Source of the DNA: an uncultured Poribacteria bacterium | Lineage (GTDB): Bacteria; Poribacteria; WGA-4E; WGA-3G | DNA length: 64,000 bases | Direction of reading: 5' to 3' | Assembly (NCBI GenBank): GCA_951812525.1 | Contig: OX638316.1 | Span: 964,653 to 1,028,652 of the forward strand | In this document: one piece after another, positions 6,143-62,215 of the stretch | How positions within the stretch are numbered: position 1 is the first letter of the stretch | Layout of the letters: each line of letters opens with the position of its first letter | The notes under the pieces: generated by a model | The model's database searches: none | Seen by the model: only the letters and a program-made list of their open reading frames with translations | Told to the model about the DNA's origin: nothing | Program-made: the position numbers and the translations under genes

Positions 6143-7021
6143 ATGCAAGATTTTGGGTATATTGCCGCGAAAACGGTATCAGAAGCCGTTGCTCTACTTG
6201 ACGAAAAAGGACAGACCGCACGCATCTTAGCTGGTGGTACCGACCTCATCGTCCAAGTCAGGGAAGCTCGGCGAGACGTTGACTGGATGATCGATATCAA
6301 ATCCATCCCCGAGGTCAATGTATTAGACTACAATGCAGACACCGGCTTAACGCTTGGTGCTGCTGTCGAATGTTTTAAGATTTATGCTGTTGATGAAATC
6401 TGCGATGCCTATCCAGGCTTAATTGATGCGACCAAAATTATTGGTGGCACTGCCATCCAAGGACGCGCCGGTGTCGGTGGTAACTTATGCAACGCTTCGC
6501 CCGCCGCAGATTGTATACCACCATTAATTGTGCTAAATGCCTCCTGTGTTATCGCCGGCCCAAATGGTGAACGCGAACTACCAGCCGAACAATTCTGTAC
6601 TGGACCTGGACAAACTGCGTTGGAAAACGGTGAGATGCTTGTCTCTCTGAAGATACCCGCACCCGCAAGCAATTCAAGCTCCTTCTACCTCCGGTTCATC
6701 CCGCGTAATGAGATGGATATCGCTGTCGTCGGTGCCGGTGCCTCTGTGACGCTTGACGACGCTAAGCAGACAATCGTTTCTGCTCGGATCGCGCTCGGTG
6801 CTGTTGCACCAACGCCGCTCTTCGCAGAAGAAGCAAGTGCGCTACTTACCGGTCGAGAAGTCTCTGATGCCACTATTGACGAAGCCGCACAAGCCGCACA
6901 AGCCATCGCACGTCCGATTAGCGATATGCGTGGCACGGCAGAACAGCGGACACACCTCGTTGGTGTGCTGACACGGCGTGCACTTAACGGCGCAATTCAG
7001 AGAATCCGAGACGCAGCATAA
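6143..7021 (+). CDS. xanthine dehydrogenase/CoxM family FAD-binding subunit
   Basis: LAGGTDL, GGNLCNASPAAD, ARIALGAVAPTP, PISDMRG. Confidence 0.9.
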   Translation: MQDFGYIAAKTVSEAVALLDEKGQTARILAGGTDLIVQVREARRDVDWMIDIKSIPEVNVLDYNADTGLTLGAAVECFKIYAVDEICDAYPGLIDATKIIGGTAIQGRAGVGGNLCNASPAADCIPPLIVLNASCVIAGPNGERELPAEQFCTGPGQTALENGEMLVSLKIPAPASNSSSFYLRFIPRNEMDIAVVGAGASVTLDDAKQTIVSARIALGAVAPTPLFAEEASALLTGREVSDATIDEAAQAAQAIARPISDMRGTAEQRTHLVGVLTRRALNGAIQRIRDAA

Positions 7022-7122
7022 GGTCTGCACGATCAGCAATTGGCACGGGTCGATTAACTTCTGCCTCTATAGGAAGGACAACAATTTTCCTTCTGGACTA
7101 AACGCGAAAGGAACTCATAACT

Positions 7123-7593
7123 ATGGCGAGAAAATCGCACGTTCAAACCACTATCAATGGTGAAACGGTGGAATTTCTCTGTGAATCCCGACAAAGTCTG
7201 TTGGAAGTTCTCAGAGATGAACTCCACCTCACAGGTGCTAAAGAGGGATGCAACAACGGAAATTGCGGTGCCTGTAGCGTCATTCTTGACGGCAGACTCG
7301 TCAATTCATGCCTCGTACTTGGTGTGGAAACTGAAGGCAAATCCGTCGAAACTATCGAAGGAGTCGCCGAACCTGACAAACTGCACCCCATCCAAGATGC
7401 TTTCCTCGAGAACGCCGCGCTCCAGTGTGGTATCTGTACACCCGGCTTTATTATGAGCACCAAGGCACTTCTGGATCAAAACCCAAACCCAACTGAACAT
7501 GAAATTCGATACTGGTTGGCTGGAAATTTGTGTCGCTGTACCGGTTACGATAAGATTGTTCGTGCTGTGCAAGACGCAGCTGAATCCATGTGA
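7123..7593 (+). CDS. xanthine dehydrogenase/CoxS family 2x[2Fe-2S] subunit
   Basis: GCNNGNCGAC, QCGICTPG, NLCRCTGY. Confidence 0.92.
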   Translation: MARKSHVQTTINGETVEFLCESRQSLLEVLRDELHLTGAKEGCNNGNCGACSVILDGRLVNSCLVLGVETEGKSVETIEGVAEPDKLHPIQDAFLENAALQCGICTPGFIMSTKALLDQNPNPTEHEIRYWLAGNLCRCTGYDKIVRAVQDAAESM

Positions 7594-7622
7594 AAGGAGC
7601 GTCTTTCGACGGGAGATTAAAA

Positions 7623-9878
7623 ATGACTGAAAACAAAGAATACAAAGTTGTTGGAACCCGCCCTATCCGCCATGACGGTGTTGATAAAGTCACGGGCAGG
7701 GCACTTTACGGAGCAGATTTCCAGATCGCAGGACTCCTTCATGGCAGGGTACTTCGGAGTCCGCACGCACACGCCCGAATTCTCTCAATTGACACCAGTC
7801 GTGCCGAGGCACTTCCGGGCGTAAAGGGTGTTGTCACTGCCGCAGACTTGCCTACCGCTGAGGACAGAATCGCAGACTTGGGCGAAGGTGCTGTCAATCT
7901 CAAATATCTCTGCGATAATATTTTCGCCAGTGATAAGGCACTGTACAAGGGGCACGCTGTCGCCGCTGTCGCTGCGACGAATCCGCATATCGCAGAAGAA
8001 GCTTGTACACTCATTGATGTCGAATACGAGGTGCTCCCACCTGTCTTAGAGGTGCGCCAAGCGATGGAGCCGGACGCACCGCTCCTCCACGAAAACATAA
8101 AAACCACCTCAATGGGCGAGACCGCTGAGGAACCGAGCAACGTCGCAAGCCATATCCAACACAAACTCGGTGATCCTGAAAAAGGGTTCGCTGAAGCGGA
8201 TATTGTCATTGAACGCGACTTCGTCACAGGCACCGTTCACCAAGGCTATATTGAACCACACAACGCCACAGCACATTTCAATCAGGATGGACAGCTGACC
8301 ATCTGGTGTAGCACGCAAGGGGCATTTACGGTTCGTGAACAGGTCGCCGAAATTCTTCAGCACCCGATTTCCAAAATTAAGGTTGTCCCGATGGAAATTG
8401 GTGGCGGTTTTGGTGGTAAGATCAGCGTCTACATTAAACCTGTCGCAGCACTACTCGCCAAGAAAACAGGGAAACCGGTCAAGGTCCTGATGAGTCGTAC
8501 GGACGTGTTCGAAGGGACGGGACCGACCCCAGCTTCTTACATTCGCGTCAAGATGGGTGCTACCAAAGCCGGAAAGATAACCGCTGCTGAGGCATACCTT
8601 GCTTTTGAGGCAGGTGCTTATCCCGGCTCGCCCGTTGGACCCGGAGCAATGTGTATCTTTGCACCCTATAACATTGAAAACGTCATCATCGACGGTTACG
8701 ATGTCGTTGTGAACAAACCGAAAACCGCTCCTTATCGCGCACCCGGGGCTCCAAACGCCGCTTTCGGTTCAGAGACAGTTCTCGATGAGATCGCCGAAGA
8801 ACTGGGCATTGATCCACTTGAAATCCGGTTAATCAACGCCGCAAAAGAAGGCGACCGCCGGGCAGACGGACCCATTCACCCGCGCATCGGTTTTATCGAA
8901 ACCGTTGAAGCTGCGAAATCGCATCCACACTATACCGCACCGAATGGGAAGAAGCACCACGGTCGCGGTATCGCTTCCGGGTACTGGTTCAATATCGGCT
9001 TGGAATCCAGCGTGACGATTAATGTCAACGCAGATGGAACGATTAACCTAATTGAAGGTTCAACAGACATCGGTGGCACGCGATCCTCCATCGCTATGCA
9101 GGCGGCAGAGGTCCTCGATATCCCCGCTGAATCGGTTAACCCAAGTGTTGTTGATACCAATTCTGTCGGTTACACTGCTGTGACCGGCGGCAGTCGCACA
9201 ACCTACGCAACTGGCTATGCCGCTTATGAAGCCGCACAAGATGTCAAGCGGAAGATGATTGAACGCGCTGCGAAACTTTGGGAAGTCGATGAATCCAACG
9301 TGCAGTTCGCAGATGGTGTGTTTTCATCTATCAACGGTAAAGAGGAACAGATTAGTTTCCGTGATCTGTGTGGTCGCCTCGGTGAAACCGGAGGACCAGT
9401 TGTCGGCAGCGGTACCGTAAATCCTGGGGGTGCCGGTGGTGCTTACGCAACTCACATTGTGGATGTGGTGGTAGACGAGGAAACAGGTAAGGTCGAGGTT
9501 CTTCGCTATACTGCGGTACAGGATGCCGGAAAAGCGATCCATCCGAGTTACGTTGAAGGACAAATCCAAGGCGGTGCCGTTCAAGGCATCGGCTGGGCAT
9601 TGAACGAGGAATATATCTACAATGACGAAGGCGAGATGACCAATGCCAGTTTCCTTGACTATCGAATGCCGACCTGCTTAGATTTACCCATGATTGACGC
9701 TGTTATCGTTGAGGTTCCGAATCCGGGGCATCCGTATGGTGTGCGTGGTGTCGGTGAAGTGCCGATTGTACCACCAATGGCTGCCATCGCCAACGCTATC
9801 TACGATGCAATCGGTATTCGGATGACAGAACTGCCGATGTCACCCAATCGACTCCTAAAAGCGATGGGTAAAATCTAA
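7623..9878 (+). CDS. xanthine dehydrogenase family molybdopterin-binding large subunit
   Basis: DKVTGRA, GGGFGGK, YRAPG, GSRT, GQIQGG, GVGE catalytic Glu; ATG at 7623. Confidence 0.9.
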   Translation: MTENKEYKVVGTRPIRHDGVDKVTGRALYGADFQIAGLLHGRVLRSPHAHARILSIDTSRAEALPGVKGVVTAADLPTAEDRIADLGEGAVNLKYLCDNIFASDKALYKGHAVAAVAATNPHIAEEACTLIDVEYEVLPPVLEVRQAMEPDAPLLHENIKTTSMGETAEEPSNVASHIQHKLGDPEKGFAEADIVIERDFVTGTVHQGYIEPHNATAHFNQDGQLTIWCSTQGAFTVREQVAEILQHPISKIKVVPMEIGGGFGGKISVYIKPVAALLAKKTGKPVKVLMSRTDVFEGTGPTPASYIRVKMGATKAGKITAAEAYLAFEAGAYPGSPVGPGAMCIFAPYNIENVIIDGYDVVVNKPKTAPYRAPGAPNAAFGSETVLDEIAEELGIDPLEIRLINAAKEGDRRADGPIHPRIGFIETVEAAKSHPHYTAPNGKKHHGRGIASGYWFNIGLESSVTINVNADGTINLIEGSTDIGGTRSSIAMQAAEVLDIPAESVNPSVVDTNSVGYTAVTGGSRTTYATGYAAYEAAQDVKRKMIERAAKLWEVDESNVQFADGVFSSINGKEEQISFRDLCGRLGETGGPVVGSGTVNPGGAGGAYATHIVDVVVDEETGKVEVLRYTAVQDAGKAIHPSYVEGQIQGGAVQGIGWALNEEYIYNDEGEMTNASFLDYRMPTCLDLPMIDAVIVEVPNPGHPYGVRGVGEVPIVPPMAAIANAIYDAIGIRMTELPMSPNRLLKAMGKI

Positions 9879-9953
9879 CCCGTAGCAAATTCTGTAGGGC
9901 GAGGTCTCGTGCCTCGCCCTCTTTATCCGCAATTACTGCGACCCCATTCAAAA

Positions 9954-10223
9954 ATGCCAACTGTAGCCATTCCATCCCTCATGCGTAATCTCACAGGCGG
10001 CGAAGAGAGTGTTACCGTTCCTGGTGCCACCGTTCGTGAAGTGATTGACAATTTGGAGAATCGCTATCCGGGCATGAAAGCCCGCTTGCGTGAAGGAGAC
10101 CGCCTTAAGCCCGGTGTTGCTGTGTATATCAACGGCTTGCTCACCCGAGGATCCATCCTCGAACGCGTTGACGCAGACGCAGAGATCCATTTCCTACCCG
10201 CCATCAGTGGTGGCACAACATAA
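9954..10223 (+). CDS. MoaD/ThiS family ubiquitin-like sulfur carrier
   Basis: MPTVAIPSLMRNLTGG...IHFLPAISGGTT; ATG at 9954. Confidence 0.85.
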   Translation: MPTVAIPSLMRNLTGGEESVTVPGATVREVIDNLENRYPGMKARLREGDRLKPGVAVYINGLLTRGSILERVDADAEIHFLPAISGGTT

Positions 10224-10252
10224 CACTCCCACTAAATCACCGCAGATACTTA

Positions 10253-10420
10253 GTTCTTCTGTAGGAGGGATTTCCCAATCCCGACGTATGCTCACAGATG
10301 CCTAATGTATACGTAATGCTAAAATTTACCATACTTCTTCTGTAGGAGGGGTTTCTAACCCCGACACGCTACGATGTCTAGGTAATGCTAAAATCTACCA
10401 TACTTCTTCTGTAGGACGGA
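10253..10420. repeat. tandem array of REP-hairpin + MITE right-end units
   Basis: TTCTTCTGTAGGA occurs three times (GTAG at 10261, 10342, 10411); the first two units end in GTAATGCTAAAAT(T/C)TACCATA. Confidence 0.7.
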
Positions 10421-10716
10421 ACTCCAAATTGTGTGCATAAAGCACAATTTGTCTTAGCTTTACATTTCCCGACTCCTCCGATCCCCGACCTTTCCGTATT
10501 AAGTGATCAAAGCAGAATTTCTGTAGTTAGATTTCGTTTTCAGTGTTTCACCTGCGTTTTGATGTAATAAACGCGCGCAGCATGCGCGAATTCGCGTAAA
10601 AATTAGGCAAAAATGGTGAAACTCCTTAAAGATGGCTTTATTTGCAAAAAAAAGTGATAAAATTGCCAAAAAACAGGTTTCAGGGTCAAAATTATGCTTT
10701 TTTTTTACAAATTAAT

Positions 10717-10745
10717 TTGACAAACATATATGCGGAGGGTATAAT
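10717..10745 (+). promoter_or_regulatory. 16S rRNA promoter
   Basis: Perfect TTGACA-17bp-TATAAT with AT-rich UP region; boxA-like TGTTCTTTGAAA at ~10777. Confidence 0.8.
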
Positions 10746-10865
10746 TAACATTACCTTTCAACAAGGAAGGTGAATTTGTTCTTTGAAAGTTAAATAGTGA
10801 ACGTGACGTGCCAATTTAATAGCTTGTGAGTACACTTCAATTTATTTGAAGGTGTGCTTCAATAC

Positions 10866-12427
<1,562 letters not shown>

Positions 12428-12656
12428 CATTAACAAATGGATTCTCACACAATTCATCTGTTCAAACGCTCTTTACCTTTTACAGACACGCACAAAAACT
12501 ATTTAGCTTTCAAGAACATTTTCTTACAAGATACAGCAATCACTTTGCTATACTCACCAATCCATTTCCCCTTTATTTTTCAATCTAACTCACCTTACCC
12601 AGCTTGTGATTTAAGACTGGCTCTCTCTGCCTTCTTATCTCCTTTAACAAATTAAC

Positions 12657-12685
12657 TTGACAAACCCTTTTTCAGGATGTATAAT
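12657..12685 (+). promoter_or_regulatory. promoter for tRNA-Ile (copy of the 16S promoter cassette)
   Basis: TTGACA-17bp-TATAAT with the same flanks as 10717 (ACAAATTAA..TTGACAAAC, GTATAATTAACATT). Confidence 0.75.
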
Positions 12686-12736
12686 TAACATTGCTCCTGA
12701 ACAAGAAATATCTCCCTTCTCCAAGACCCCTCTCGT

Positions 12737-12810
12737 GGGCTTATAGCTCAGACGGTTAGAGCGCGCGCCTGATAAGCGCGAGGTCCCTGGTTCGATTCCA
12801 GGTAAGCCCA
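12737..12810 (+). tRNA. tRNA-Ile(GAT)
   Basis: GGGCTTATAGCTCAG...CTGATAA...GGTTCGATTCC...AAGCCCA cloverleaf; CCA not encoded. Confidence 0.95.
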
Positions 12811-13103
12811 CTTTTTCATATCCCCTTTTTTACACTACTTTCAATTCTCCGAGTGTCTCCTCTCACATCCGACGTTAACAGGCGAAATTTGCATTTTTTC
12901 TCACCACAAATCCTTCCCGCTCCGAAGAAATGTTACTCAACAGCGACAGTGAGGCATAGAAAGAAATTTCACTGAAGAAAAAGCAGTAAATCAGGTTCTA
13001 ATAAAGTAGGACCATGGACTAAGATAGCTTTTCCCTAAGGGTTGTTTCGGGTTTCGTATTTGCCGAAAACGCGCAAGTTGGGAACTCGTACAAGGAAAAT
13101 ACC

Positions 13104-14609
13104 ATGCTAATCACACTCATCCGTCGAGAAATACTCGACAATCTGATGACATTCCGATTCGCTGCTGCAGTCTTCATTACACTGTTACTCGTTATTGCTA
13201 CCACCGTCGTGCTCATCAAGGATTACGAGCGGCGTTTGGCAGACTACAACACTGCTGTCAAAACGCATCATCAGCAATCGCTGGAGAAAAAAACCTATTC
13301 AGATGGAATATTTAACGTTGATCGACCGCCCAACCCGTTGAGTCTATTCAATGTAGGACTGGATAAACAACTCGGTAATCAAGTAGAGGTTTATCACGGT
13401 TTTGTGCCGACGCTGTGGGATGCTCAAATGCACGGCTCGGATAATCCGATCATGAATATCTTCTCTTCGATCGATATTGTTTTTATTTTTGAGGTAGTTC
13501 TCAGTTTATTGGCACTCATATTCGCCTACGATGCCCTCGCCGGGGAACGCGAGCGTGGTACACTACGCTTAGTGTTGACGCATGCTGTCAGTCGTGGATA
13601 CATTCTACTTGCCAAATATGTTAGCGCAATGATGTGTCTGCTCGTGCCGTTATTAATCAGTATGCTACTGGCAGTGATGCTGCTAACGACATCTACCTCT
13701 TTTTCTCTCAACGCTGATGATTTTCTCCGCATCGCTGGCATAATTTTTACTTCTATCGTTTATCTGTCCGTATTTTATCTCATCGGTATGCTCATTTCTG
13801 CAATGACGCGCCGGACCGCCACTGCCCTTATGCTCTCTATGTTCGTCTGGGGATTTTTGGTGCTGGTCTATCCAAATGTGATTCTCGCTGCGCTTACCCC
13901 TCACGATACTCCAGAAACGCGCACAGCATCCACCTTCAGTCAAATTGAACAATTATGGGAAGAATTCGACAGAGAACACAAACAATACCTTAAAAATGAT
14001 GCTGTGCCAGGAGAGAGTCCTGGTTTTAACATGGGCTGGGTCGGATCGTCTACAAGGCGTTTCACAAAAAATGCAGCAACATTAAAGTATTCCTATCAAA
14101 ATACTTTCCGCATAGAAAAACTCAATGAGAGATCTGAGCCCAAGGTGCCTCATGTCCAGAGTTATTACCAGTTTCTGGTACCGTTGACTCTCAACACGGC
14201 AAATCAAACCTGGCTCCTCCGAAAACCTGCCCTTGAGGAAATCTTTGTGAAGCCAGCGTTAGTCGATAGAATCCTTTTGAAGCTGTCACCAGTCGGGATG
14301 TACGATGCAGCAACACAAGCTTGGGCAGGGACAGATCTTTTTGGGATCGAAGACTTCTTCAGTGCTGCCCAACGTTACCGACAGACTGTGATCGATTACT
14401 TCTACGATAAAAAGGCATTTGCGTCTCGACAATGGTTCGCTGCAGATAAAGGCGCAGTGGACTGGAGCACACTCCCTCAATTCTTTTTTCAGAAAAGTGA
14501 TGTCGGCATAAACGCTAAGCGAGCATTGCCGGATGTGAGTCTTTTGCTGACGATTAATGTAGTTCTTTTCGTAGTTATATTTCTAATTTTCGTCAAAAGT
14601 GAAGTATAG
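13104..14609 (+). CDS. ABC-2 type permease, type A copy 1 (DUF3526-like large extracytoplasmic loops)
   Basis: LIRREILDNL, AGERERGTLRLVL ABC-2 coupling motif, ~6 TM segments. Confidence 0.85.
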   Translation: MLITLIRREILDNLMTFRFAAAVFITLLLVIATTVVLIKDYERRLADYNTAVKTHHQQSLEKKTYSDGIFNVDRPPNPLSLFNVGLDKQLGNQVEVYHGFVPTLWDAQMHGSDNPIMNIFSSIDIVFIFEVVLSLLALIFAYDALAGERERGTLRLVLTHAVSRGYILLAKYVSAMMCLLVPLLISMLLAVMLLTTSTSFSLNADDFLRIAGIIFTSIVYLSVFYLIGMLISAMTRRTATALMLSMFVWGFLVLVYPNVILAALTPHDTPETRTASTFSQIEQLWEEFDREHKQYLKNDAVPGESPGFNMGWVGSSTRRFTKNAATLKYSYQNTFRIEKLNERSEPKVPHVQSYYQFLVPLTLNTANQTWLLRKPALEEIFVKPALVDRILLKLSPVGMYDAATQAWAGTDLFGIEDFFSAAQRYRQTVIDYFYDKKAFASRQWFAADKGAVDWSTLPQFFFQKSDVGINAKRALPDVSLLLTINVVLFVVIFLIFVKSEV

Positions 14610-14657
14610 AATAGTTTTCAGTACCCAGTACTCAGTATCCAGTACCGATAACCAATT

Positions 14658-16064
14658 ATGATTTGGCATATTGCGAAACGCGAACTCTACGATAACCTGC
14701 ACAGTCTTCGATTTGCCCTAACCACTATACTGCTATTGGGGTTGATGCTAACCAATGCGGTTGTGCACATCAAAGAGCACCCGATTCGGACCCAGAAGTA
14801 TAATGCTTCAGTCACGGAATCTCTGAATGTTTTAAGGGATCGTGCAAACAATTTGTATGAACTCGCACGAGAGGGGCCCGGACTACTTCACAAAAAGCCA
14901 TCCGCACTTCACTTCTGTGCCGAAGGTGGCGAACCCTTTTTGTCAGACGTTGTTGGTGGTGCCTTTCTTTGGTCTACCAGCAGTGGTTTAAAGGGTTTCT
15001 GGCGGTTAGATTATCCATCCGCCACCCCTAATTTGACAAATATTCGCCCAAATATCACAAAGGTAGATTGGGTATTCATTATCTGCTATGCCCTGAGTCT
15101 GATTGCACTCCTGTTCACCTTTGACAGCATCTCCGGCGAACGCGAGCACGGCACGCTGAGATTGATGCTTGCAAATCCGATCCCACGTCACACTGTGTTG
15201 ATAGGCAAGTTCTTAGGAGCGTTGATAAGCATCAACATTCCCTTCACTCTTGCCGTATTGATGAATCTGCTGGTCATTTCTATGTCGACCGCCGTGCAAC
15301 TCGACGGCACTGCGTGGGGACGTTTAGGTATCATTTTGTTTATCGCTGTTCTGTACATAAGCCTTTTTCTGGCGTTAGGTCTATTAGTTTCTGCCCGTGT
15401 TTCGCAAAGTGCCGTGAGTCTTGTGACGCTTCTACTGATTTGGGTTACTTTCGTAATCTTTGTGCCGAGTACGCTCGCCTCCATTACGGGTGGATTCTCA
15501 TCGCCGATGTCCCGCGATGAATTTCGGAAACGTCGAGATGAACTATATTCGGAACGTTGGAAACGATACGACGATTATCTTTTTGAAGTGTTTGAACCAT
15601 CTAAAATAATACAATTCAAAGGTAAACATGTTACCGAGGAAGCGGCAGAACAGGAACGCTTGAGCGAAGAACACTTAATGCAACAGGTGCGTCAGGTTAA
15701 ATTCGCGCGCGCTACAACACAGATATCACCGGCAGCGATTTCCCAACACCTCTTTGAATCCTTGGCAGGAACGGGTTTCGAGCGGTATCTGCAATTCTTA
15801 GAGAATACTAAATCTTATGCCCAGCAATTTCGGGCATTCATCATTGACGCCGATAGGGGAGATCCAGAGAGTCTCCATATCATTGGCATCCGTGAGGGTA
15901 TGTCACAGAAACCTGTCAGTTCAGAGGCGATTCCAAAATTTGAAGATACGCTGAGTCTGAGTAAGGATTTCAATACCGCTGCTATAGAGTTGCTGCTGTT
16001 AGGGATGTTTTTCATAGTGCTTTTGTCAGGAGCGTATTTGGCATTTGTGCGCGTTGAGGTATAA
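14658..16064 (+). CDS. ABC-2 type permease, type B copy 1
   Basis: MIWHIAKRELYDNL, FDSISGEREHGTLRLML, LAGTG. Confidence 0.85.
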   Translation: MIWHIAKRELYDNLHSLRFALTTILLLGLMLTNAVVHIKEHPIRTQKYNASVTESLNVLRDRANNLYELAREGPGLLHKKPSALHFCAEGGEPFLSDVVGGAFLWSTSSGLKGFWRLDYPSATPNLTNIRPNITKVDWVFIICYALSLIALLFTFDSISGEREHGTLRLMLANPIPRHTVLIGKFLGALISINIPFTLAVLMNLLVISMSTAVQLDGTAWGRLGIILFIAVLYISLFLALGLLVSARVSQSAVSLVTLLLIWVTFVIFVPSTLASITGGFSSPMSRDEFRKRRDELYSERWKRYDDYLFEVFEPSKIIQFKGKHVTEEAAEQERLSEEHLMQQVRQVKFARATTQISPAAISQHLFESLAGTGFERYLQFLENTKSYAQQFRAFIIDADRGDPESLHIIGIREGMSQKPVSSEAIPKFEDTLSLSKDFNTAAIELLLLGMFFIVLLSGAYLAFVRVEV

Positions 16065-16067
16065 CAG

Positions 16068-17579
16068 ATGATGATGACACTTATACGTCGAGAGATCCTC
16101 GACAATCTGATGACATTCCGATTTGCTGCGGCAGTCTTCATTATGCTGCTACTTGTTGTCGCGAATACCGCTGTGCTTATTCAAGATTACGAGCGACGGT
16201 TGGCAGGGCACAACACCGCTGTTAAAATGCATCAGCGGCAACTCCATGAGAAAAAGACTTATTCCGCAGGGATGGAGAAATTATTGGTAGATCGTCCGCC
16301 GAATCCATTGAGCATTCTCAATGCCGGGTTCGATAAACGGCTCGGAAACGAGGTCTTGGCATCACACGGATATGTTCCGTCACTCTGGGACGCAAACATG
16401 CACGGATCGGACAATCCGTTTATGGATATGTTCGCTTCAATGAATATCGTCTTTATCCTTGAGGTTGTCCTTAGCCTATTAGCACTAATTTTCGCCTATG
16501 ACGCTTTTGCGGGAGAATATGAGAACGGCACATTACGTCTGGTCTTGACGCATCCAATCGGTCGTGGATATATCTTGTTCGCCAAATACATCGGTGCAAT
16601 GCTCTGTCTGATCGTCCCGCTGTTGATTAGTTTACTTCTCGCAGTAATTTTGCTGATGATGTCTACCTCTATTTCCCTGAGTACCGATGATTTCTTGCGA
16701 ATCGGCGGTATTATTTTCGCATCTATTGCCTATCTTTCCGTATTCTATCTCATCGGATTGTTGATTTCAGCGGCGACACGTCGGACCAGTACTGCATTGA
16801 TGCTGTCCATGTTCGTGTGGGGGTTTTTGGTGCTGGTGTATCCAAATGTGATTCTTGCCATGATCACGCGTCCTGATGCTTGGCAAGCACACACAGCATC
16901 CACTTTCAATAAAATTGAACAGATATGGGAAGAATTCGACAGAGAACGGAAGCACCTCCTTGCCACCGATGATTTCCCTGGGGAAGATTGGGGTTTCGAA
17001 CTAAGAGGATGGGGATCCCGCTACGCTTACCTTTGGGGTAACCCCCGGTCGCTACTGTACACCTATGAAAGTGTCATGGAGTTTCATGGGTTTGGTGAGA
17101 AAGATGAACACAAGATGCCTCACGCCCAGAATCATTTCCGTTTCTTAGGATCCGAGGTGATTAGCACAGCAGACCGAACATGGCTCATCCGAAAACCCGC
17201 ATTGGAAAATATCTACATCCAACCTGCAAATGTGAAGAGAACTTGGTTGAAACTCTCGCCAGTCGGACTCTATGATGCTACAACACAAGCATTGGCAGGC
17301 ACCGACTTACGAGGTATCAGGGATTTTTTCGACACTGCAAGACAATATAGGCAGCAAGTGGTCGATTATCTCTACGATAAAGAGGCATTCGGATCCCGAC
17401 AATGGTTCTCCTCGGACAAGGAAGCAGCAGATTGGAGCGGCTTATCCCAGTTTTCCTTTCAAAGAGTCAATGCAATCACAAACGCTAAGCGAGCATTGCC
17501 TGATGTGAGCCTGTTGCTGACGATTAATATCGCTCTTTTCATCCTGATATTTCTGATTTTCGTCAAAAGTGAAGTATAG
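16068..17579 (+). CDS. ABC-2 type permease, type A copy 2
   Basis: Paralog of 13104-14609; AGEYENGTLRLVL; ends FVKSEV. Confidence 0.85.
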   Translation: MMMTLIRREILDNLMTFRFAAAVFIMLLLVVANTAVLIQDYERRLAGHNTAVKMHQRQLHEKKTYSAGMEKLLVDRPPNPLSILNAGFDKRLGNEVLASHGYVPSLWDANMHGSDNPFMDMFASMNIVFILEVVLSLLALIFAYDAFAGEYENGTLRLVLTHPIGRGYILFAKYIGAMLCLIVPLLISLLLAVILLMMSTSISLSTDDFLRIGGIIFASIAYLSVFYLIGLLISAATRRTSTALMLSMFVWGFLVLVYPNVILAMITRPDAWQAHTASTFNKIEQIWEEFDRERKHLLATDDFPGEDWGFELRGWGSRYAYLWGNPRSLLYTYESVMEFHGFGEKDEHKMPHAQNHFRFLGSEVISTADRTWLIRKPALENIYIQPANVKRTWLKLSPVGLYDATTQALAGTDLRGIRDFFDTARQYRQQVVDYLYDKEAFGSRQWFSSDKEAADWSGLSQFSFQRVNAITNAKRALPDVSLLLTINIALFILIFLIFVKSEV

Positions 17580-17627
17580 AATAGTTTTCAGTACTCAGTA
17601 CTCAGGACCCACTACCCAGGACCCCCA

Positions 17628-19040
17628 ATGATTTGGCATATTGCGAAACGTGAACTCTATGATAATTTAAATAGTCTTCGATTTGCGCTTGCAACAATGT
17701 TACTGCTGGGCTTAATGTTGACCAACGCAATTACACATCTCCGAGAACACCCAGAGCGGGTTCAAAAATACCGTGATGCTGTTGCTAAACATCAAAGTCT
17801 CTTAACATCTCATGCCGAGAACAGTTTATATGAACTGGCGCAACAAGGACCTGGAAGGCTCTATAAACAGCCGTCTCCCCTCCGTTTCTGTGCTGAAGGC
17901 GGGGAAACCTTCTTGTCAGATCATGCAGAAGGCGGCTACCATCGTTGGAGCACCGACACATTAAAAAGTTTCTGGATACTGGTATATCCATCGGTTACGC
18001 CCAATGTGGACAATGTTCACCCAGAAGTCACCAAAGTGGATTGGAGCTTTATAATAGGGTACGTCTTAAGCCTGATCGCGCTTCTGTTTACTTTCGATTC
18101 GATCTCCAGCGAGCGCGAGCGAGGCACGCTGCGATTGACCTTAGCGAATTCAATTCCGCGCCACACCGTGTTGATTGGTAAGTTTTTGGGAGCATTGATA
18201 AGTATCAACATCCCGTTTATACTTGCTGTGCTGGTGAATCTGTTGGTGATCTCTACGTCAAGTAATGTTCATCTCGGTACTGAGGCGTGGGAACGTTTAG
18301 GTATTATCTTCATTATTGCGATCTTGTACATGTGCCTTTTTCTGGTATTGGGTTTGTTAGTATCGGCGCGTGTACAACGGAGTGCTGTAAGTCTTGTTAT
18401 ACTCCTGTTGGTTTGGGTCACATTTGTGGTTTTTATGCCGGGGACCCTTGCCTCTATTGCCGGTGGTTCCGCATCATCCGGACCCACTCGCGGATTTTAT
18501 GAATACTCTTGGCAAGTCCATAATGAACTGTCAGCTCAATATAGAAGTCGCCGACGTAACGCCAGCGAGAATTCAACCCAAAAAGTACAATCAGCGGGTG
18601 AGTACGTTATCAAAGATGCTGAACAGCAGGAACGGTTGCATGAAGAACGCTTAAAACAGCGGATTGATCAGGTGAATCGGGCGCGCATCATCACTCGTCT
18701 TTCGCCTGTTACGATTGCCCAGCACCTTCTTGAATCCTTCGCCGCAACTGGTTTTGAGCGGCATCTACAATTTTTAGAGAATGTTCAATCGTACGCCCGA
18801 CAATTCCGAGTATTCATTGCTGACTCCGATAAAGCCGATCCAGAGAGTCTCCATATCCTTGGCGTTCGGGCAGGCATGTCCGAGAAGCCTGTCAGTCCAG
18901 AAGCGGTCCCCAAATTTGAAGACGCGCTTAACCTCAGCAAAGACTTCAATATAGCTGCGACGGAGTTGATGCTGTTGATGCTGTTCGTTGTGGTGCTAAT
19001 GTCAGGAGCGTATCTTGCGTTTGTGCGCGCTGAGGTATAA
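17628..19040 (+). CDS. ABC-2 type permease, type B copy 2
   Basis: Paralog of 14658-16064; SERERGTLRL. Confidence 0.85.
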   Translation: MIWHIAKRELYDNLNSLRFALATMLLLGLMLTNAITHLREHPERVQKYRDAVAKHQSLLTSHAENSLYELAQQGPGRLYKQPSPLRFCAEGGETFLSDHAEGGYHRWSTDTLKSFWILVYPSVTPNVDNVHPEVTKVDWSFIIGYVLSLIALLFTFDSISSERERGTLRLTLANSIPRHTVLIGKFLGALISINIPFILAVLVNLLVISTSSNVHLGTEAWERLGIIFIIAILYMCLFLVLGLLVSARVQRSAVSLVILLLVWVTFVVFMPGTLASIAGGSASSGPTRGFYEYSWQVHNELSAQYRSRRRNASENSTQKVQSAGEYVIKDAEQQERLHEERLKQRIDQVNRARIITRLSPVTIAQHLLESFAATGFERHLQFLENVQSYARQFRVFIADSDKADPESLHILGVRAGMSEKPVSPEAVPKFEDALNLSKDFNIAATELMLLMLFVVVLMSGAYLAFVRAEV

Positions 19041-19043
19041 TAG

Positions 19044-20546
19044 ATGCTAATAACACTCATTCGTCGAGAACTGCTTGATAATCTAATGACATTTCGATTT
19101 GCGGTAGCAATCTTTATCATGTTACTGCTTGTCGTCGCAAATACCGCTGTGCTTCTCAAGGATTATGACAAACGATTAGCAAGTTACAACACAGCCGTCA
19201 AAAAGAATCGGCAGGAACTGCTGGAAACAAAAACCTATTCAGCAGGACACATAAGCCTTAACCGCGCCCCTAACCCGCTGAGTATCTTCAACATCGGTTT
19301 AGATAAACGACTGGGAAACGAGATTTGGATATCCTATGTATATATGCCGACACTCTGGGATGCCAACAAGCACGGGACAGATAATCCGTTTCTCAACCTC
19401 TTTACTTCCATTGATCTTGTTCTTATCTTTCAGAGTGTCCTCAGTTTGCTGGCACTGATCTTCGCCTACGACTCTCTTGCTGGAGAATACGAGCGTGGTA
19501 CACTGCGTTTAGTCCTGACACATCCCGTTGGTCGTGGGTATATCTTATTTGCCAAATACATCGGTGCGATGATCTGCCTTCTTGTGCCGCTGCTGATGAG
19601 CATACTCCTCTCTCTGATTTTGTTGACCACATCTCCTTCGATCTCCCTAAGTACCGATGATTTTCTCCGTATTGGTGGAATCGTGTTTACATCGCTGGTG
19701 TATCTCTCACTGTTTTACCTTATCGGCATGCTCATTTCCGCAATGACGCGCCGGACGAGTACCGCACTCATGCTGGCGATGTTCGTCTGGGGATTTTTGG
19801 TGCCTGTCTATCCAAACATGATTCTTACAGCAGTTGAAACCGCTCCGAAAATAGGGACAGAAGCCTCCGCTTACAATCAGATTAAACAGATATGGGAAAA
19901 ACATGACAGAGAACAAAAGCAGTTTCTCGCCAATGATGCTTTTCCCGGAGACGATTGGGATTTTAACCTGATTGGAACTGGCTACAGCTTTTGGGGTGGC
20001 GAAGATGACCCTTTAACATTGCACTATTACGACTACACCGGATCCCACCTTGAAACCCTTGAAGAGAAATACGAACTGCGAGTGCCACACGCCCAGAATT
20101 ATCACCACTTCCTCGGAACCAACATCATCAACACCGTAGAACGAGCGTGGCTCATCCGAAAACCAGCATTAGAGACTATCTACCTCCAGCCTGCAAGGAT
20201 TGGGAGAATGTTGTTAAAGGTTTCACCAGTTGGGTTGTATGATGGGGCAACCGAAGCCTGGGCAGGGACAGATCTCAAGAGTATCCAAGACTTTTTCTCA
20301 GCAGCGCAACGCCACCGACGAGCAATCGTTAACCATTTTTACGACAAAGAGATATTCGCATCTCGAAAATGGTTTACCGCCGACCAAGGCGCAGTTGACT
20401 GGAACACACTACCCCAATTCTCTTTTCAGAGAAGTGATATAGGTACAAATGCAAAGCGAGCGTTGCCAGATTTGTTTTTACTAATGATGATTAACATAAT
20501 CCTGTTCACAATAATTCTTCTGATTTTCGTCAAGAGCGAAGTGTAG
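19044..20546 (+). CDS. ABC-2 type permease, type A copy 3
   Basis: Paralog; AGEYERGTLRLVL; ends FVKSEV. Confidence 0.85.
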   Translation: MLITLIRRELLDNLMTFRFAVAIFIMLLLVVANTAVLLKDYDKRLASYNTAVKKNRQELLETKTYSAGHISLNRAPNPLSIFNIGLDKRLGNEIWISYVYMPTLWDANKHGTDNPFLNLFTSIDLVLIFQSVLSLLALIFAYDSLAGEYERGTLRLVLTHPVGRGYILFAKYIGAMICLLVPLLMSILLSLILLTTSPSISLSTDDFLRIGGIVFTSLVYLSLFYLIGMLISAMTRRTSTALMLAMFVWGFLVPVYPNMILTAVETAPKIGTEASAYNQIKQIWEKHDREQKQFLANDAFPGDDWDFNLIGTGYSFWGGEDDPLTLHYYDYTGSHLETLEEKYELRVPHAQNYHHFLGTNIINTVERAWLIRKPALETIYLQPARIGRMLLKVSPVGLYDGATEAWAGTDLKSIQDFFSAAQRHRRAIVNHFYDKEIFASRKWFTADQGAVDWNTLPQFSFQRSDIGTNAKRALPDLFLLMMINIILFTIILLIFVKSEV

Positions 20547-20593
20547 AATAGTTGTCAGTACCAGTACTCAATACCCAGCACCCATAACTAATT

Positions 20594-22003
20594 ATGATTT
20601 GGCATATTACAAAACGTGAAATCTACGACAACCTCAATAGCCTCCGATTCGCGCTAACAACCGGCTTGTTGATAGCACTGATGGCAACCAACGCCGTTAG
20701 GCATCTTCGAGAACATCCAAAACGGGTACAGAAATATCACGATGCTGTCGCTGCATCTGTAAATCTCATGAACTCTCATGCCAACGACAGCCTATATAAA
20801 CTCGCACAACAGGGACCCGGAAAACTCTACAAAAAGCCGTCTCCTCTTCACTTCTGCACAGAGGGCGGGGACCCTCTTTTACCCGACCGGGTTGAAGGTG
20901 GCAGCCCTTTCCAATATGCTGAACATTTAACAGGGGTCTGGAAACTGGAATACCCAGACGCTAACATAAATATGAAGAACGTTGGACCGGACGTTTCTCA
21001 AGTGGATTGGGCGTTTATTATCGGTTATGTCCTGAGTCTAATTGCCCTTCTCTTCACTTTTGATGCTCTTTCCGCGGAACGCGAGCGCGGCACACTTCGA
21101 TTGATGCTGGCAAATTCAATCCCACGCCACACCGTCCTTATCAGCAAGTATTTAGGAGCATTGATAAGTATTAATATCCCCTTTATACTTGCTGTGCTGT
21201 TGAACTTATTGATTATCTCCACCGCAAGCAGTGTTCACCTCAATACCGCAGCATGGGGACGCTTAGGCATCATCTTCCTTATAGCGCTTTTATACACGTC
21301 TCTGTTTCTGGCGTTAGGTCTGTTAGTGTCTGCGCGTGCGCAGCAGAGTGCTGTGAGTCTTGTAATACTTCTGTTGATGTGGGTCGCTCTTGTTATTTTT
21401 ATGCCCAGCACTTTTGCTTCAATTGCAAGTAGTTCCTCATCATCTATGTCACCCGATGAGTTTCTGAAACACCGCAGGCTACTTTACGATAAACTTTCGG
21501 ATGAATACCACGATCAGCTCTGGTCAGGTGAACTGGATGAAAAAACACTAACAGGTAAGAGTGAATTCTTCATCAAACATGCAGAAGGGAGAGAACGCTT
21601 AAATCAAGAATTCTTAGCTCAGCAGATTACACAAGTTCAACACGCCCGTTCTATCTCTCGGGTATCACCTGCGACGCTTCTTCAACATCTCCTTGAATCG
21701 TTCGCGGGGACGGGTTTCGAGCGGCATCTGCAATTCTTAGAGAATGTGAAAACTTACGCCCGACAATTGCGTCAATTCGTTGTTGACACGGATAGAGCCG
21801 ATCCACAAAGCCTTCATATTATCGGTGTTCGTGAGGGTATGACCAAGAGGAAGATCCTACCGAAGGCTATCCCGAAGTTTGAAGATACGTTCAGTTTTAG
21901 TAAGGACCTCAATACCAGAGCGATAGAGTTATTGCTGCTGGCGTTGTTTGTTGTAGCGCTGCTGGCGGGTGCGTATTTAGCCTTCGTACGCGTTGAAATT
22001 TGA
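20594..22003 (+). CDS. ABC-2 type permease, type B copy 3
   Basis: Paralog; AERERGTLRLML. Confidence 0.85.
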   Translation: MIWHITKREIYDNLNSLRFALTTGLLIALMATNAVRHLREHPKRVQKYHDAVAASVNLMNSHANDSLYKLAQQGPGKLYKKPSPLHFCTEGGDPLLPDRVEGGSPFQYAEHLTGVWKLEYPDANINMKNVGPDVSQVDWAFIIGYVLSLIALLFTFDALSAERERGTLRLMLANSIPRHTVLISKYLGALISINIPFILAVLLNLLIISTASSVHLNTAAWGRLGIIFLIALLYTSLFLALGLLVSARAQQSAVSLVILLLMWVALVIFMPSTFASIASSSSSSMSPDEFLKHRRLLYDKLSDEYHDQLWSGELDEKTLTGKSEFFIKHAEGRERLNQEFLAQQITQVQHARSISRVSPATLLQHLLESFAGTGFERHLQFLENVKTYARQLRQFVVDTDRADPQSLHIIGVREGMTKRKILPKAIPKFEDTFSFSKDLNTRAIELLLLALFVVALLAGAYLAFVRVEI

Positions 22004-22870: not shown

Positions 22871-23767
22871 CTATCCGTCAGCGGATTTTCTCCTACGGCG
22901 ATGGTAAGACGGCTGGACATTCATATCGACCGAGTTCCAATAATACTTCAACCAATCGTCCGTTTCCCACCCCGAATAGACCTCTTCCCATTTCGCACAG
23001 CCCAGATGAACGGTGAGCGCATCTTCATCAACAGGTTCACTGACCGACTGGTACCTGGCACTCGTTGCGAGCCGTATGCGATCCTTAGTCACGTTGTCAC
23101 GACCTCGGTGAATCGTTAAACTGTGAAACATGAGAACATCGCCACACTTAAAAGGGTTCGAGACCCATTCCGTACTATCTTCAATCAACTCCCACGAACG
23201 GACACCGTTGTCTTTTAGGAACCCGCGACGGTTCGACCCACGTGCAATCGCCAAACCACCCAACTCGGTATCACAGTCTCCCAGCGGTGTCCACACCGTC
23301 CATGTATCCTGTGTACCGCGAACCGGATGGAAGTCCTGATGTGGAGGGGTGGTATACTGATGTTCTCCTGGAAAGATGACGTGACAAATGTGACGCGGAT
23401 GGATGAGAACCGAATCGCCGAACAGGACTTCCAGAATCTGCACAATACGCTCGTGATGCGGAAGGACGTGGAAAAGTCGAAGTTTCTGGACGTCAATGTA
23501 AAAATTTCTGAAAGTCTCGGATCCGTCTTGCTCACAGATGAAGACGCCTTCTCTACGGATACCAGCATCAAGATGGGTCCCAAGTTCAAGAAGCTCGTGC
23601 TGATCTGCAACACGGAGCACCTGCTGACGTAGTTCAAGCACCGGCTCTACGGGGAGCAGCCCGGGAAAAAAGAGATACCCGTTCTGGTGACTATGCTCAA
23701 GTAGTCCAGCACGATCTGCAATCAAGTCTGTGCAGTCTGTGAATGGAGATTCGGTGCGCATTAGCAT
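22871..23767 (-). CDS. phytanoyl-CoA dioxygenase (PhyH) family
   Basis: GYLFFPGLL, PPHQD, TVWTPLGD, GDVLMFHSLTIH. Confidence 0.88.
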   Translation of the reverse strand: MLMRTESPFTDCTDLIADRAGLLEHSHQNGYLFFPGLLPVEPVLELRQQVLRVADQHELLELGTHLDAGIRREGVFICEQDGSETFRNFYIDVQKLRLFHVLPHHERIVQILEVLFGDSVLIHPRHICHVIFPGEHQYTTPPHQDFHPVRGTQDTWTVWTPLGDCDTELGGLAIARGSNRRGFLKDNGVRSWELIEDSTEWVSNPFKCGDVLMFHSLTIHRGRDNVTKDRIRLATSARYQSVSEPVDEDALTVHLGCAKWEEVYSGWETDDWLKYYWNSVDMNVQPSYHRRRRKSADG

Positions 23768-32484: not shown

Positions 32485-34257
32485 ATGAAATTGCTACAGC
32501 TTCTGTTGATTATTTCACTTGGCATCGGTGCTTACGCCCTTGTGGCAGCACCTCCAGACTTATCTACCACTCCCCCATGGCAACCCACAGGAAAATACAC
32601 ACATCCCCCTATCCAAGAGAGTTCCGGTATCGTTACAAGTCAGCAATTTGAAGGTGTCTATTGGACACTCAACGACTCTGGCAACCCTGCAGCACTTTAC
32701 GCTACAAAACTAAATGGTGAATTAATTCAAGAGATCGCTGTGAGCGGTTCGGGCAACTTCGACTGGGAAGCACTCGGTATCGACACACAGAACCAACTCT
32801 GGATCGGTGAAATCGGCAATAATAGCACGCTACGGCAAGACTTGAAAGTAGTCGTCGTTGCAGAACCGGACCCGTTCACTGAAACAGAGGTGGAAGTCAT
32901 CGCAAGTTACCCGTATCGCTATCCAAACGAGAATGTGGATGCTGAAGGGCTCTTTATCGCCGGAGGTATCCCCTACATCGTCTCTAAGGAGCGGGAACGT
33001 GCTGTACTCTATCGATTTCCAACACTACAACCTGATACAAAACAGGTTTTAGAACGTGTTGGTGAATTCGCTGATGCAAAATTCGTGACAGGTGCAGGAT
33101 TGTCTGAAGACGGGACGAGGCTTGCTGTCTGTACCTACGACGCACTCTGGGTGTATCAGGGCACAGCGGATAATTTCGCACAGATGATTCAGAGCACACC
33201 GTGGCACCTATCACATAGTTTTTATGGAGAGGCGGTTTGCTTTGACGGTTATGATCTTGTCCTAACGAATGAAGGGCGTGACCTCTACAGTTTACCACAA
33301 TTTTGGTACGAGAAAGAGTGGGAGCTGCCTCCAAAAAACACACAATCGGCAGTCTCTCTCCTACCTAAAGCAACAACACATAACGCATCAGCGCAAGTAG
33401 AAAGCTACCGCACAACGGGCATAACTATAGATGGAAGCTATGTAGCACTGATACCGGAAACTGCTGAAGAGACCGGATCCTTAACTGTTCCAATTGAAGC
33501 TCCTTACAGAGATGTTTATGAAATTAGTGCTATTTTAGCGCGTGGACCGGAATACGCCCAAGTTGAACTATCAGCGAACGGCACTGTAGTCGGCACATCC
33601 TACAACAGTTATTTTCCTGAACCGATAGCCGGGACGTTGGTTTCATTTGGTACCGCTCCCCTGAATGCTGGGACAAACCAAATTATGCTTAGGGTCGTCG
33701 GGAAAGCAGCCGAAGGGAAAAGTTACAAAATCGGTATCAATTCCTATCAGGTGCTGCATGCCTCTCCATTTGTTGAACGTTACATGGTACTCGGTCCATT
33801 TCCCAACACAGATGTTGAGACGATTGATAAGCTGCTGCACTCTGAAAGCCCGTTAAACTCAGAGGCAACTTACACAGGTACGCATGGCAAAACAGTCCAT
33901 TGGCAGGAAGGGACTGCAGGCGCAGGCGGTTACCTCGATTTACGTACAAACCTTAGTTTTGAGCCACAGGTTGTTGGATACACGCTAGTGTACGTCCACG
34001 CCTCGAAAATAACCGATTCTGTGATGCTGATTGGGAGCGATGACGAAATCACTGTCTGGCTAAACGGAACCGAAATTCACCGGAACAGTATTGACGCTGG
34101 AGCGTCGGTAGATAGAGATGCGGTTCCGTGCCAATTGAAAGCAGGATGGAACACGGTTCTGTGCCAAAAAGTGGATCTCGGTTGGTCGTGGGGGCTTTAT
34201 CTACGGTTTACGGATGCGGATGGGGATCTTCGGTATAGTCTACAGCCAGAAGAATAA
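32485..34257 (+). CDS. secreted protein: beta-propeller-like N-domain + jelly-roll/PA14-like C-domains
   Basis: Signal peptide; ESSG, LNDSGN, DWEA, DAEG, GEAV repeats; C-terminal GSDD...VWLNG...LKAGWN. Confidence 0.6.
   Translation: MKLLQLLLIISLGIGAYALVAAPPDLSTTPPWQPTGKYTHPPIQESSGIVTSQQFEGVYWTLNDSGNPAALYATKLNGELIQEIAVSGSGNFDWEALGIDTQNQLWIGEIGNNSTLRQDLKVVVVAEPDPFTETEVEVIASYPYRYPNENVDAEGLFIAGGIPYIVSKERERAVLYRFPTLQPDTKQVLERVGEFADAKFVTGAGLSEDGTRLAVCTYDALWVYQGTADNFAQMIQSTPWHLSHSFYGEAVCFDGYDLVLTNEGRDLYSLPQFWYEKEWELPPKNTQSAVSLLPKATTHNASAQVESYRTTGITIDGSYVALIPETAEETGSLTVPIEAPYRDVYEISAILARGPEYAQVELSANGTVVGTSYNSYFPEPIAGTLVSFGTAPLNAGTNQIMLRVVGKAAEGKSYKIGINSYQVLHASPFVERYMVLGPFPNTDVETIDKLLHSESPLNSEATYTGTHGKTVHWQEGTAGAGGYLDLRTNLSFEPQVVGYTLVYVHASKITDSVMLIGSDDEITVWLNGTEIHRNSIDAGASVDRDAVPCQLKAGWNTVLCQKVDLGWSWGLYLRFTDADGDLRYSLQPEE

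Positions 34258-59239: not shown

Positions 59240-62215
<2,976 letters not shown>

Follow-up and report, generated by a model that had tools for sequence, protein, structure and literature searches.

A 64,000-nucleotide stretch of DNA from an uncultured Poribacteria bacterium (positions 964,653 to 1,028,652 of contig OX638316.1, GenBank assembly GCA_951812525.1; the whole stretch is called the window below) carries an array of genes for permeases of ATP-binding cassette (ABC) transporters of the ABC-2 type. The array has the order A1-B1-A2-B2-A3-B3, with A proteins of about 500 aa and B proteins of about 470 aa, and a fourth A/B pair lies at 45780-48776. The A+B cassette repeats with a period of 2964 and 2976 bp, the gaps from A to B being 47-48 bp and those from B to A 3 bp, and the three tandem cassettes and the fourth pair are thus laid out exactly as an initial annotation of the sequence had described them. 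All eight window permeases match PF12679 (ABC2_membrane_2) at E values of 1e-28 to 1e-34 (100-118 bits, with a cut-off of 27.2), and all eight match PF12040 (DUF3526) at 28-37 bits (gathering cut-off 25) in the segment between transmembrane (TM) helices 5 and 6. The A copies are 50-67% identical to one another and the B copies 47-64%, while A and B share 27%.

The initial annotation had also noted that the window encodes neither an ABC ATPase nor a binding protein. A six-frame search of the whole genome with PF00005 gave zero matches inside the window (the closest one, SufC, lies 24 kb upstream of A1), and binding-protein families were absent from the 33 other window open reading frames (ORFs) that were scanned (32 of at least 150 aa and one of 104 aa). 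The strong conservation claimed for the TM helices and for a coupling motif is likewise evident, both in low column entropies and in the motif E-x-E-x-GTLRL, which is found in all eight window permeases. Residues E148, G152 and T153 are invariant across 40 paralogues and homologues; across A, B and S copies (S being a third type, see below) E9, R18, G152 and T153 are invariant and E148 is at least 90% conserved. In the AlphaFold2 (AF2) model of A1, short helices occupy residues 146-151 and 153-158 between TM2 and TM3, and by comparison with type V ABC exporters we infer that this loop is the coupling helix for a nucleotide-binding domain (NBD).

The A and B genes are arranged as partners well beyond this array. 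A set of 320 full-length permease ORFs (430-560 aa, shorter or split ORFs being excluded) consists of 159 A, 147 B and 14 S, and the transitions between neighbours within 600 bp are 142 AB, 58 BA, 6 SA and 2 SS, with no instance of AA or BB. Furthermore, the A and B proteins of one pair diverged in step. Structure prediction places A1 and B1 together, with ipSAE values of 0.75, 0.75 and 0.74 (0.00 for the best control), a pLDDT of 81-82 for the partner and agreement between runs in at least 95% of the contacts. The mark used for ipSAE was reached by 116 of 157 solved complexes and by 2 of 215 mismatched pairs, a benchmark that is rough since our own alignments were used. The predicted interface is made of TM1, TM2 and TM5 together with conserved periplasmic segments.

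The A1 model (pLDDT 87, pTM 0.83) has six TM helices and a periplasmic domain at residues 265-470. It begins with an amphipathic helix, followed by a TM1 that extends into the periplasm as a long helix, a periplasmic loop of about 80 residues and TM2-TM5; a domain of about 200 residues, composed of long helices and a beta-hairpin (312-340), is then inserted between TM5 and TM6. The best match of the TM core is NosY of the NosDFY complex (Z 27.3, root-mean-square deviation 2.7 A over 253 residues, 25% identity; the next match has Z 20.1), and Foldseek pairs the same two proteins at an E value of 1e-5. Subunits of ABCA, ABCG, PmtCD, CcmB and Wzm match the A1 core at Z 12-20. The periplasmic domain found no match in these whole-model fold searches, in which the matches span about 250 residues of the TM core.

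A single candidate ATPase for many permeases

A profile of the eight window proteins, searched against the 5.06-Mb genome, identified 19 full-length permease paralogues, all of them intact, which make up eight A/B pairs and three singles of the S type; one further fragment of 221 aa lies at genome position 2,905,115. The PF00005 search of the same genome yielded 63 matches over the family cut-off and 71 at E <= 0.001, and by this search none of the 19 paralogues has a cognate ATPase adjoining it. An NBD lies within 10 kb of only three paralogue loci. At one of these it is ZnuC, which was rejected as a partner because it belongs to a znuABC operon, and at another two 613-aa exporters, which were rejected as fused proteins. 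The third is a 244-aa DrrA-type ATPase, encoded at genome positions 1,407,800-1,408,534, about 430 kb from the window array, between an S-type permease and a convergent A/B pair.

Evidence that this ATPase belongs with the permeases comes from a comparison of 74 Poribacteria loci around A-type homologues, with arrays of 2 to 10 permease genes, in which the best match to A1 is 62-79% identical. (The scan for related loci used an A-type query and returned Poribacteria only; the contexts in other phyla are those of plasmids only.) A 244-aa ATPase gene stands beside the permease array in 11 of the 74, directly downstream on the same strand in seven and divergent in four. All 11 of these ATPases are 85-95% identical to the ORF at 1,407,800, whose own next best match in the genome reaches 35-38%. 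The only other NBD match in the 74 loci is a 500-aa protein in L092.

The ATPase gene is followed by two others, as it is in this genome, in all nine of the 11 loci that extend far enough: a gene for a 794-aa protein and one for a TolC-family protein (OEP; PF02321, E 2.4e-33 beside the candidate ATPase). The 794-aa protein is anchored in the inner membrane at both ends, and a weak model gives it an alpha-hairpin at residues 71-150 and then about seven beta-sandwich domains. Its only family matches are to immunoglobulin (Ig)-like domains of the NPCBM_assoc/CARDB type and to NPCBM_assoc/COG1470-like clusters, a structure search with the weak model returned only generic matches to tandem Ig/macroglobulin domains, and a comparison with PDB sequences gave one match at chance level.

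Several other genes lie near this module. Four secreted or membrane-anchored proteins of 307, 298, 239 and 249 aa, without a clear family, surround the S-type permease and the ATPase (L018:2841-8594, plus strand); one of them is weakly DUF4097/LiaG-like, and relatives recur in the modules of other species. A 994-aa ORF directly upstream of the A5/B5 permease pair (L018:16406-19390, minus strand; genome 1,415,406-1,418,390) fuses an extracytoplasmic-function (ECF) sigma factor (residues 1-190) to an M61 glycyl-aminopeptidase domain, and ECF-sigma genes precede permease genes in five of the 11 ATPase-bearing loci.

The distribution of permeases and ATPase was compared across 61 Poribacteria genomes that are at least 85% complete, with cut-offs of E <= 1e-30 for the permease profile and E <= 1e-70 for the ATPase orthologue; related genomes are not independent, so only counts are given. 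Permeases occur in 37 of the genomes and the ATPase orthologue in 36, all of them among those 37, while 24 genomes have neither. The 794-aa protein is present in 35 of the same genomes and always adjoins the ATPase. One copy of the ATPase is found per genome, except for two in G050, each with its own 794-aa gene. Permease matches, on the other hand, number from 1 to at least 26 per genome in the profile search, and PF12679 matches reach 27-60 in five genomes of the same genus, so that across the 36 genomes one ATPase gene (two in G050) stands against 1 to 60 permease genes. The count of A/B paralogues versus cognate ATPases that the initial annotation had proposed as a check thus points to a single cognate orthologue, rather than to a separate ATPase for each pair elsewhere in the genome. 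Within genus g2 the system is present in 14 of 24 genomes, which shows that permeases and ATPase come and go together.

As controls served a GldA-like ATPase at 892304-893341 and a DrrA-like one at 375285-376058, both of the same subfamily and without a TM-rich neighbour on the same strand within 4 kb (by a crude hydropathy count). Their orthologues were found in 61 and in 54 of the 61 genomes, respectively, without relation to the presence of permeases. Within the genus the candidate ATPase is 91-96% identical, versus 80-83% and 72-77% for the two controls, and this high constraint fits a protein that must dock many partners.

Variable periplasmic patches and possible expression

Sequence variation is distributed very unevenly along both subunits. 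Among the 159 A sequences, column entropy is 2.69 bits at residues 305-345 (A1 numbering), whereas the cytoplasmic coupling loop has 0.73 and the TM helices have 0.7-1.2; the 147 B sequences show two peaks, at residues 101-110 and 281-320, as expected from the earlier description of two variable patches in B. Overall the lowest values (0.5-0.8) are those of the cytoplasmic N-terminal helix and the TM2-TM3 loop, and the highest (2.3-3.0) those of the periplasmic patches. The A1 patch is an ordered element, a hairpin with strands at 312-323 and 328-340, and the ten-residue blocks that cover these strands have an average pLDDT of 88-89. In the predicted dimer the A hairpin contacts B1 only at residues 325-326, and patch 2 of B lies in the interface only at 282-288; so few contacts imply that the patches are largely exposed near the periplasmic exit. 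The view that they are extracytoplasmic, rather than cytoplasmic or disordered, therefore agrees with both predictions.

How fast the patches evolve was estimated from the ratio of nonsynonymous to synonymous substitution rates (dN/dS) in disjoint pairs of sequences that are 80-97% identical, 62 for A and 54 for B. The ratio is 0.33 for the hairpin and 0.25 and 0.28 for the two B patches, versus 0.10 for TM and cytoplasmic parts and 0.14 for the other periplasmic parts. The patches are thus structured periplasmic elements that evolve about three times faster than the core, under purifying selection. Among A1 homologues the identity of the patch drops about twice as fast as that of the rest of the protein: the two track each other at short range (89% versus 89%), and further out the rest retains 80% identity against 68% for the patch. 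Strain differences were listed for A1 from four public runs, and one of the 15 falls in the 123-nt patch, which makes up 8% of the gene. The loop had been called hypervariable and almost unrelated between copies; its variability is indeed strongly non-uniform, but it reflects old divergence between paralogues and not ongoing hypermutation.

Two metatranscriptome libraries, both from the same study, yielded contigs that match parts of A1, B1, A2, B2 and B3 at about 99% identity, and the start of one contig lies 47 nt upstream of A1. No such cover exists for parts of A3 and B3, which is not evidence for silence. A contig from run X8 joins position 19237 (in A3) to 21399 (in B3) and omits 2161 nt; it may represent a deletion or recombinant form of the array in a different host sample, or an assembly artefact.

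A proposed shared motor and the alternatives

The gene content, the order of pairing, the fold and topology, the co-occurrence and the adjacency described above are best brought together if the array supplies interchangeable membrane modules of one ABC machine, driven by the single ATPase at 1,407,800, and we consider this reading probable. Each A+B pair would form a heterodimeric transmembrane unit of the type V (ABC-2, NosY-like) fold, with conserved cytoplasmic elements for ATPase docking, a conserved TM core and a helical periplasmic domain, which takes up about 280 residues of each subunit and bears the fast-diverging patches. All pairs most likely use the DrrA-type ATPase at 1,407,800-1,408,534, and one motor with probably one envelope-spanning conduit (the 794-aa protein and the TolC-like protein) would then serve the eight heterodimers and three S-type permeases of this genome; in close relatives the number of pairs served would rise to as many as about 30. 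Each pair would present a different periplasmic surface and therefore meet a different substrate or client, which the machine would export or extract from the periplasm or the membrane in the direction of the outer membrane. A single ATP-driven machine with exchangeable units is suggested because the docking face and core are conserved while the surfaces diverge, and because one ATPase is co-inherited with them in a module that includes the 794-aa and TolC-like genes. Physical sharing of the ATPase, the direction of transport and what the pairs recognise are all read from such patterns. The earlier proposal that many A/B heterodimers share one ATPase encoded elsewhere is in this respect supported by adjacency in the related loci, by co-occurrence, by the single orthologue and by the behaviour of the two controls.

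Several observations weigh against this picture. Contact between the ATPase and the pairs is deduced from adjacency and co-occurrence, and in this genome the candidate ATPase shares an operon with no A/B pair, the S-type permease lying 3.6 kb upstream and the convergent pair 3.8 kb downstream. With a single ATPase gene, the 11 membrane units would face a stoichiometry problem unless the pairs are expressed selectively, and in canonical DUF3526 operons elsewhere one ATPase goes with one pair. One genome (G003) has a single weak permease match and no ATPase. The score of the predicted A1-B1 complex may reflect likeness to solved type V dimers, and the RNA-library contigs come from a single study in which DNA carry-over is possible, so that transcription is not proven by them. 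The least secure step is the putative conduit role of the 794-aa protein, because the protein matches no membrane-fusion-protein (HlyD/MFP) family and its model is weak (pLDDT 65, pTM 0.29).

Could the pairs instead be driven by the GldA-like or DrrA-like control ATPases, or by several ATPases promiscuously? NBDs of the DrrA/GldA class are structurally similar, and both controls are of this class and lack an obvious permease neighbour; however, their orthologues also occur in most or all of the 24 genomes without permeases, the one at 375285 was not found in three permease-bearing genomes (G043, G046 and G004), and neither stands beside a permease array in the 74 loci, all of which makes this arrangement unlikely. 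It is quite unlikely, too, that only the ATPase-adjacent pairs transport and that the orphan pairs work without an ATPase, as passive channels, scaffolds or envelope sensors that feed, for example, an ECF sigma factor. Such a role could be read into the ECF-sigma genes that precede permeases in ATPase-bearing loci and into the sigma-M61 fusion upstream of A5/B5, and NosFY, the closest solved relative, is reportedly a mechanotransducer rather than a classical transporter. Yet the strongest conservation in A, B and S copies alike is that of the cytoplasmic elements that would contact an NBD, which is hard to explain if most copies dock no ATPase, and the permease family vanishes together with the ATPase in 24 of the 61 genomes.

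The exposed position of the patches, their high entropy between paralogues and the wide differences in copy number among close genomes (8 to 60 in the same genus) might also suggest a repertoire for antigenic or receptor variation, with the patches shaped by an arms race (as a phage receptor or in escape from host immunity) or by targeted hypermutation. We regard this as very unlikely, and hypermutation and arms-race readings were rejected on the short-range tracking of identity, the strain differences and the dN/dS values, which are far under 1. Moreover, the patches would face the periplasm of a diderm cell and not its surface, judging from the topology of the A1 model and from the OEP and TonB receptor genes, and no reverse transcriptase family was seen among the window ORFs scanned, template repeats not having been searched for. 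The suggestion in the initial annotation that diversification serves escape from phage or host recognition is accordingly unsupported, given that the patches show purifying selection and no excess of strain polymorphism. Also very unlikely is the remaining possibility, that the majority of copies are duplicates in decay or redundant ones and have no function of their own. Array positions do undergo birth-and-death turnover between species, the 221-aa fragment exists and some loci contain split ORFs; against this, all 19 full-length copies are intact, the core dN/dS is 0.10, the paralogues are old (31-67% identity) and yet retained, and RNA-library contigs cover several of them.

Related systems and genomic surroundings

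The permeases belong to a widespread, known but uncharacterised family, the DUF3526 ABC-2 family, and the same architecture is present in clusters from Acidobacteriota, Pseudomonadota and Aminicenantota; a literature search found nothing that names DUF3526. Canonical operons of the family, such as those on plasmids of the Bacteroidota Hymenobacter volaticus and Spirosoma oryzicola, resemble the Poribacteria genes in combining PF12679 with PF12040, two adjacent permease genes and a small ATPase. In these operons each pair has one ATPase in the same operon and is accompanied by a TonB-dependent receptor, whereas in Poribacteria one ATPase goes with 1-60 permease genes, lies apart from most of the arrays, and has the 794-aa bitopic protein and a TolC-like gene as its companions rather than a receptor. 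Next to the window arrays there is no ATPase gene and no receptor gene; a TonB receptor gene at 38132-40366 is 16 kb from the array and on the other strand.

Among solved structures, NosFY of the NosDFY(L) copper-delivery complex (PDB 7o0y and 7znq) has the closest TM core, is of the ABC-2/type V fold and has its ATPase as a separate gene. NosY is, however, a 270-aa homodimer that lacks a large periplasmic domain and works with the periplasmic NosD, unlike the A and B proteins, which have about 470-500 aa, pair as heterodimers and bear, between TM5 and TM6, a helical domain of some 200 residues. A nosD, nosF, nosL or nosZ context was not seen in the scan of window ORFs. In GldA/GldF/GldG of Bacteroidota gliding, an ABC-2 permease is combined with a DrrA/GldA-like ATPase and a large accessory protein, whose big periplasmic part is flanked by TM helices at both termini. 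Among NCBIfam models, A1 (E 2e-7) and B1 (E 5e-8) match GldF best, and GldA is among the matches of the ATPase. These scores are far under the equivalog cut-offs (31-33 bits versus 288), the 794-aa protein matches NPCBM_assoc and not the GldG family, and GldAFG shows no expansion of the permeases. MacAB-TolC pumps are similar in that an ABC unit of the inner membrane, which has a periplasmic domain, is encoded together with an elongated periplasmic alpha-hairpin partner and a TolC-family outer-membrane protein. The permeases here are nevertheless ABC-2 and not of the FtsX/MacB type (MacB matches only at Z 7.3), and the 794-aa protein has no HlyD/MFP match and a different order of domains.

Sharing of one ATPase by many modules that lack their own ATPase gene is familiar from MsiK/MsmK-type ABC importers and group II energy-coupling factor (ECF) transporters. 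The gene pattern of this genome is of that kind, with 19 permease genes and one array-linked ATPase orthologue; the known cases, however, are importers of other folds (type I and ECF S-components), whereas ABC-2 heterodimers of exporter type make up the Poribacteria modules. A counterpart of the ECF and MsiK systems on the side of export may tentatively be proposed, in which one ATPase, the 794-aa protein and a TolC-like duct accept up to about 30 ABC-2 heterodimers, all with a conserved TM core for one and the same mechanical task and with diversified periplasmic domains that choose the client or substrate, although we put it at somewhat less than even; non-cognate A/B combinations would possibly add further specificities. 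The literature searches made found no description of ATPase sharing for the ABC-2/type V fold. The initial annotation stated that it knew of no description of the arrangement as a system; the protein family, however, was known (DUF3526), and a locus of this type is already found on the Poribacteria fosmid 64K2 of 2006, of which a 501-aa protein (P0059) is 69% identical to A1. All close homologues are labelled Candidatus Poribacteria. On this fosmid Fieseler et al. (Environ Microbiol, 2006) reportedly found a 16S rRNA gene that is unlinked, together with a molybdenum oxidoreductase and a run of eight ORFs that encode unusual proteins resembling transporters or pores, a gene order that we take to be that of window positions 6143-22003. 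To our knowledge that paper makes no link to an ATPase, to pairing or to a genome-wide expansion.

The features of the window are collected in Table 1.

Table 1. Permease genes, segments of interest within them and upstream elements (window coordinates)
Feature	Position	Strand	Basis and remarks
16S rRNA and tRNA-Ile	10866-12419 and 12737-12811	+	Rfam and ARAGORN; conserved upstream neighbours of the array
Perfect sigma-70 consensus, TTGACA-17-TATAAT	12657-12685	+	12 of 12 matches; between 16S and tRNA-Ile
A1 permease, 501 aa, A type	13104-14609	+	PF12679 (E 5.9e-30) and PF12040
A1 residues 147-156 (GERERGTLRL), conserved cytoplasmic TM2-TM3 loop	13542-13571	+	Entropy 0.5-0.6
A1 residues 305-345, fast-evolving periplasmic beta-hairpin	14016-14138	+	Entropy 2.69 bits; dN/dS 0.33
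B1 permease, 468 aa, B type, predicted partner of A1	14658-16064	+	Pfam and predicted complex
B1 residues 96-130, patch 1, first periplasmic loop	14943-15047	+	Entropy to 3.0 bits (101-110); dN/dS 0.25
B1 residues 281-330, patch 2, directly after TM5	15498-15647	+	Entropy 2.3-3.0 bits; dN/dS 0.28
A2 permease, 503 aa	16068-17579	+	Pfam; 67% identity to A1
B2 permease, 470 aa	17628-19040	+	Pfam; 64% identity to B1
A3 permease, 500 aa	19044-20546	+	Pfam; 64% identity to A1
B3 permease, 469 aa	20594-22003	+	Pfam; 62% identity to B1
A4 permease, 505 aa, fourth pair	45780-47297	+	Pfam; 54% identity to A1
B4 permease, 476 aa, fourth pair	47346-48776	+	Pfam; 49% identity to B1

A1 starts 293 bp downstream of the 16S rRNA-tRNA-Ile unit, and a 16S gene stands directly upstream of the permease array in 17 of the 74 related loci. 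The sigma-70 consensus within this unit, kept exactly in four of the 17 16S-linked loci, is a possible promoter for tRNA-Ile and the array, and no terminator-like site was found on the plus strand between tRNA-Ile and A1. The rRNA operon is split, with 16S and tRNA-Ile at 10866-12811 on the plus strand and tRNA-Ala, 23S and 5S at 59025-62366 on the minus strand, 46 kb apart, and 16S and 23S rRNA are each single-copy in the genome.

Directly upstream of 16S are genes for a CoxM/S/L-like molybdenum hydroxylase and a ThiS-like gene (6143-10223, plus strand). On its other side the array adjoins a gene for a PhyH-family dioxygenase (22871-23767, minus strand); an earlier paper (PMC3909097) describes phyH genes as abundant in Poribacteria and places one on fosmid 64K2. 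The start of a gene for an NAGPA phosphodiester glycosidase lies 37 bp beyond B4, and a DUF4159 gene comes next (together 48814-51165, plus strand); both are possibly co-transcribed with the fourth permease pair. The stretch from 40001 to 44000 is low in G+C (0.41-0.42 versus 0.48-0.50 around it) and includes a 569-aa ORF with no Pfam match (41106-42815, minus strand). The ORFs at 32485-34257 (plus strand), 52452-53474 and 53363-55966 (both minus strand) comprise two sizeable ones with no Pfam family and one for an 867-aa protein, which ends in a CHU_C C-terminus (type IX secretion signal).

In ABC exporters, the genes for membrane and ATPase subunits usually come as a fixed set. If the proposed arrangement is correct, the shared-motor logic of some importers would extend to the ABC-2/type V fold; no earlier case of a shared motor would then be known for type V ABC exporters, and the system would be a major envelope trait of these sponge symbionts. 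The paralogues would offer a natural panel of related membrane units in which ATPase docking (conserved) can be set apart from the choice of substrate or client (variable), and a candidate partner set of ATPase, 794-aa protein and OEP is now attached to the uncharacterised DUF3526 family. In the most copy-rich of the genomes searched the permeases take up an estimated 1.5% or so of the DNA (60 genes of about 1.5 kb in 6.1 Mb). The system, whose genes often come immediately after the single 16S rRNA gene, may be the basis of functions in the envelope or in interaction with the host.

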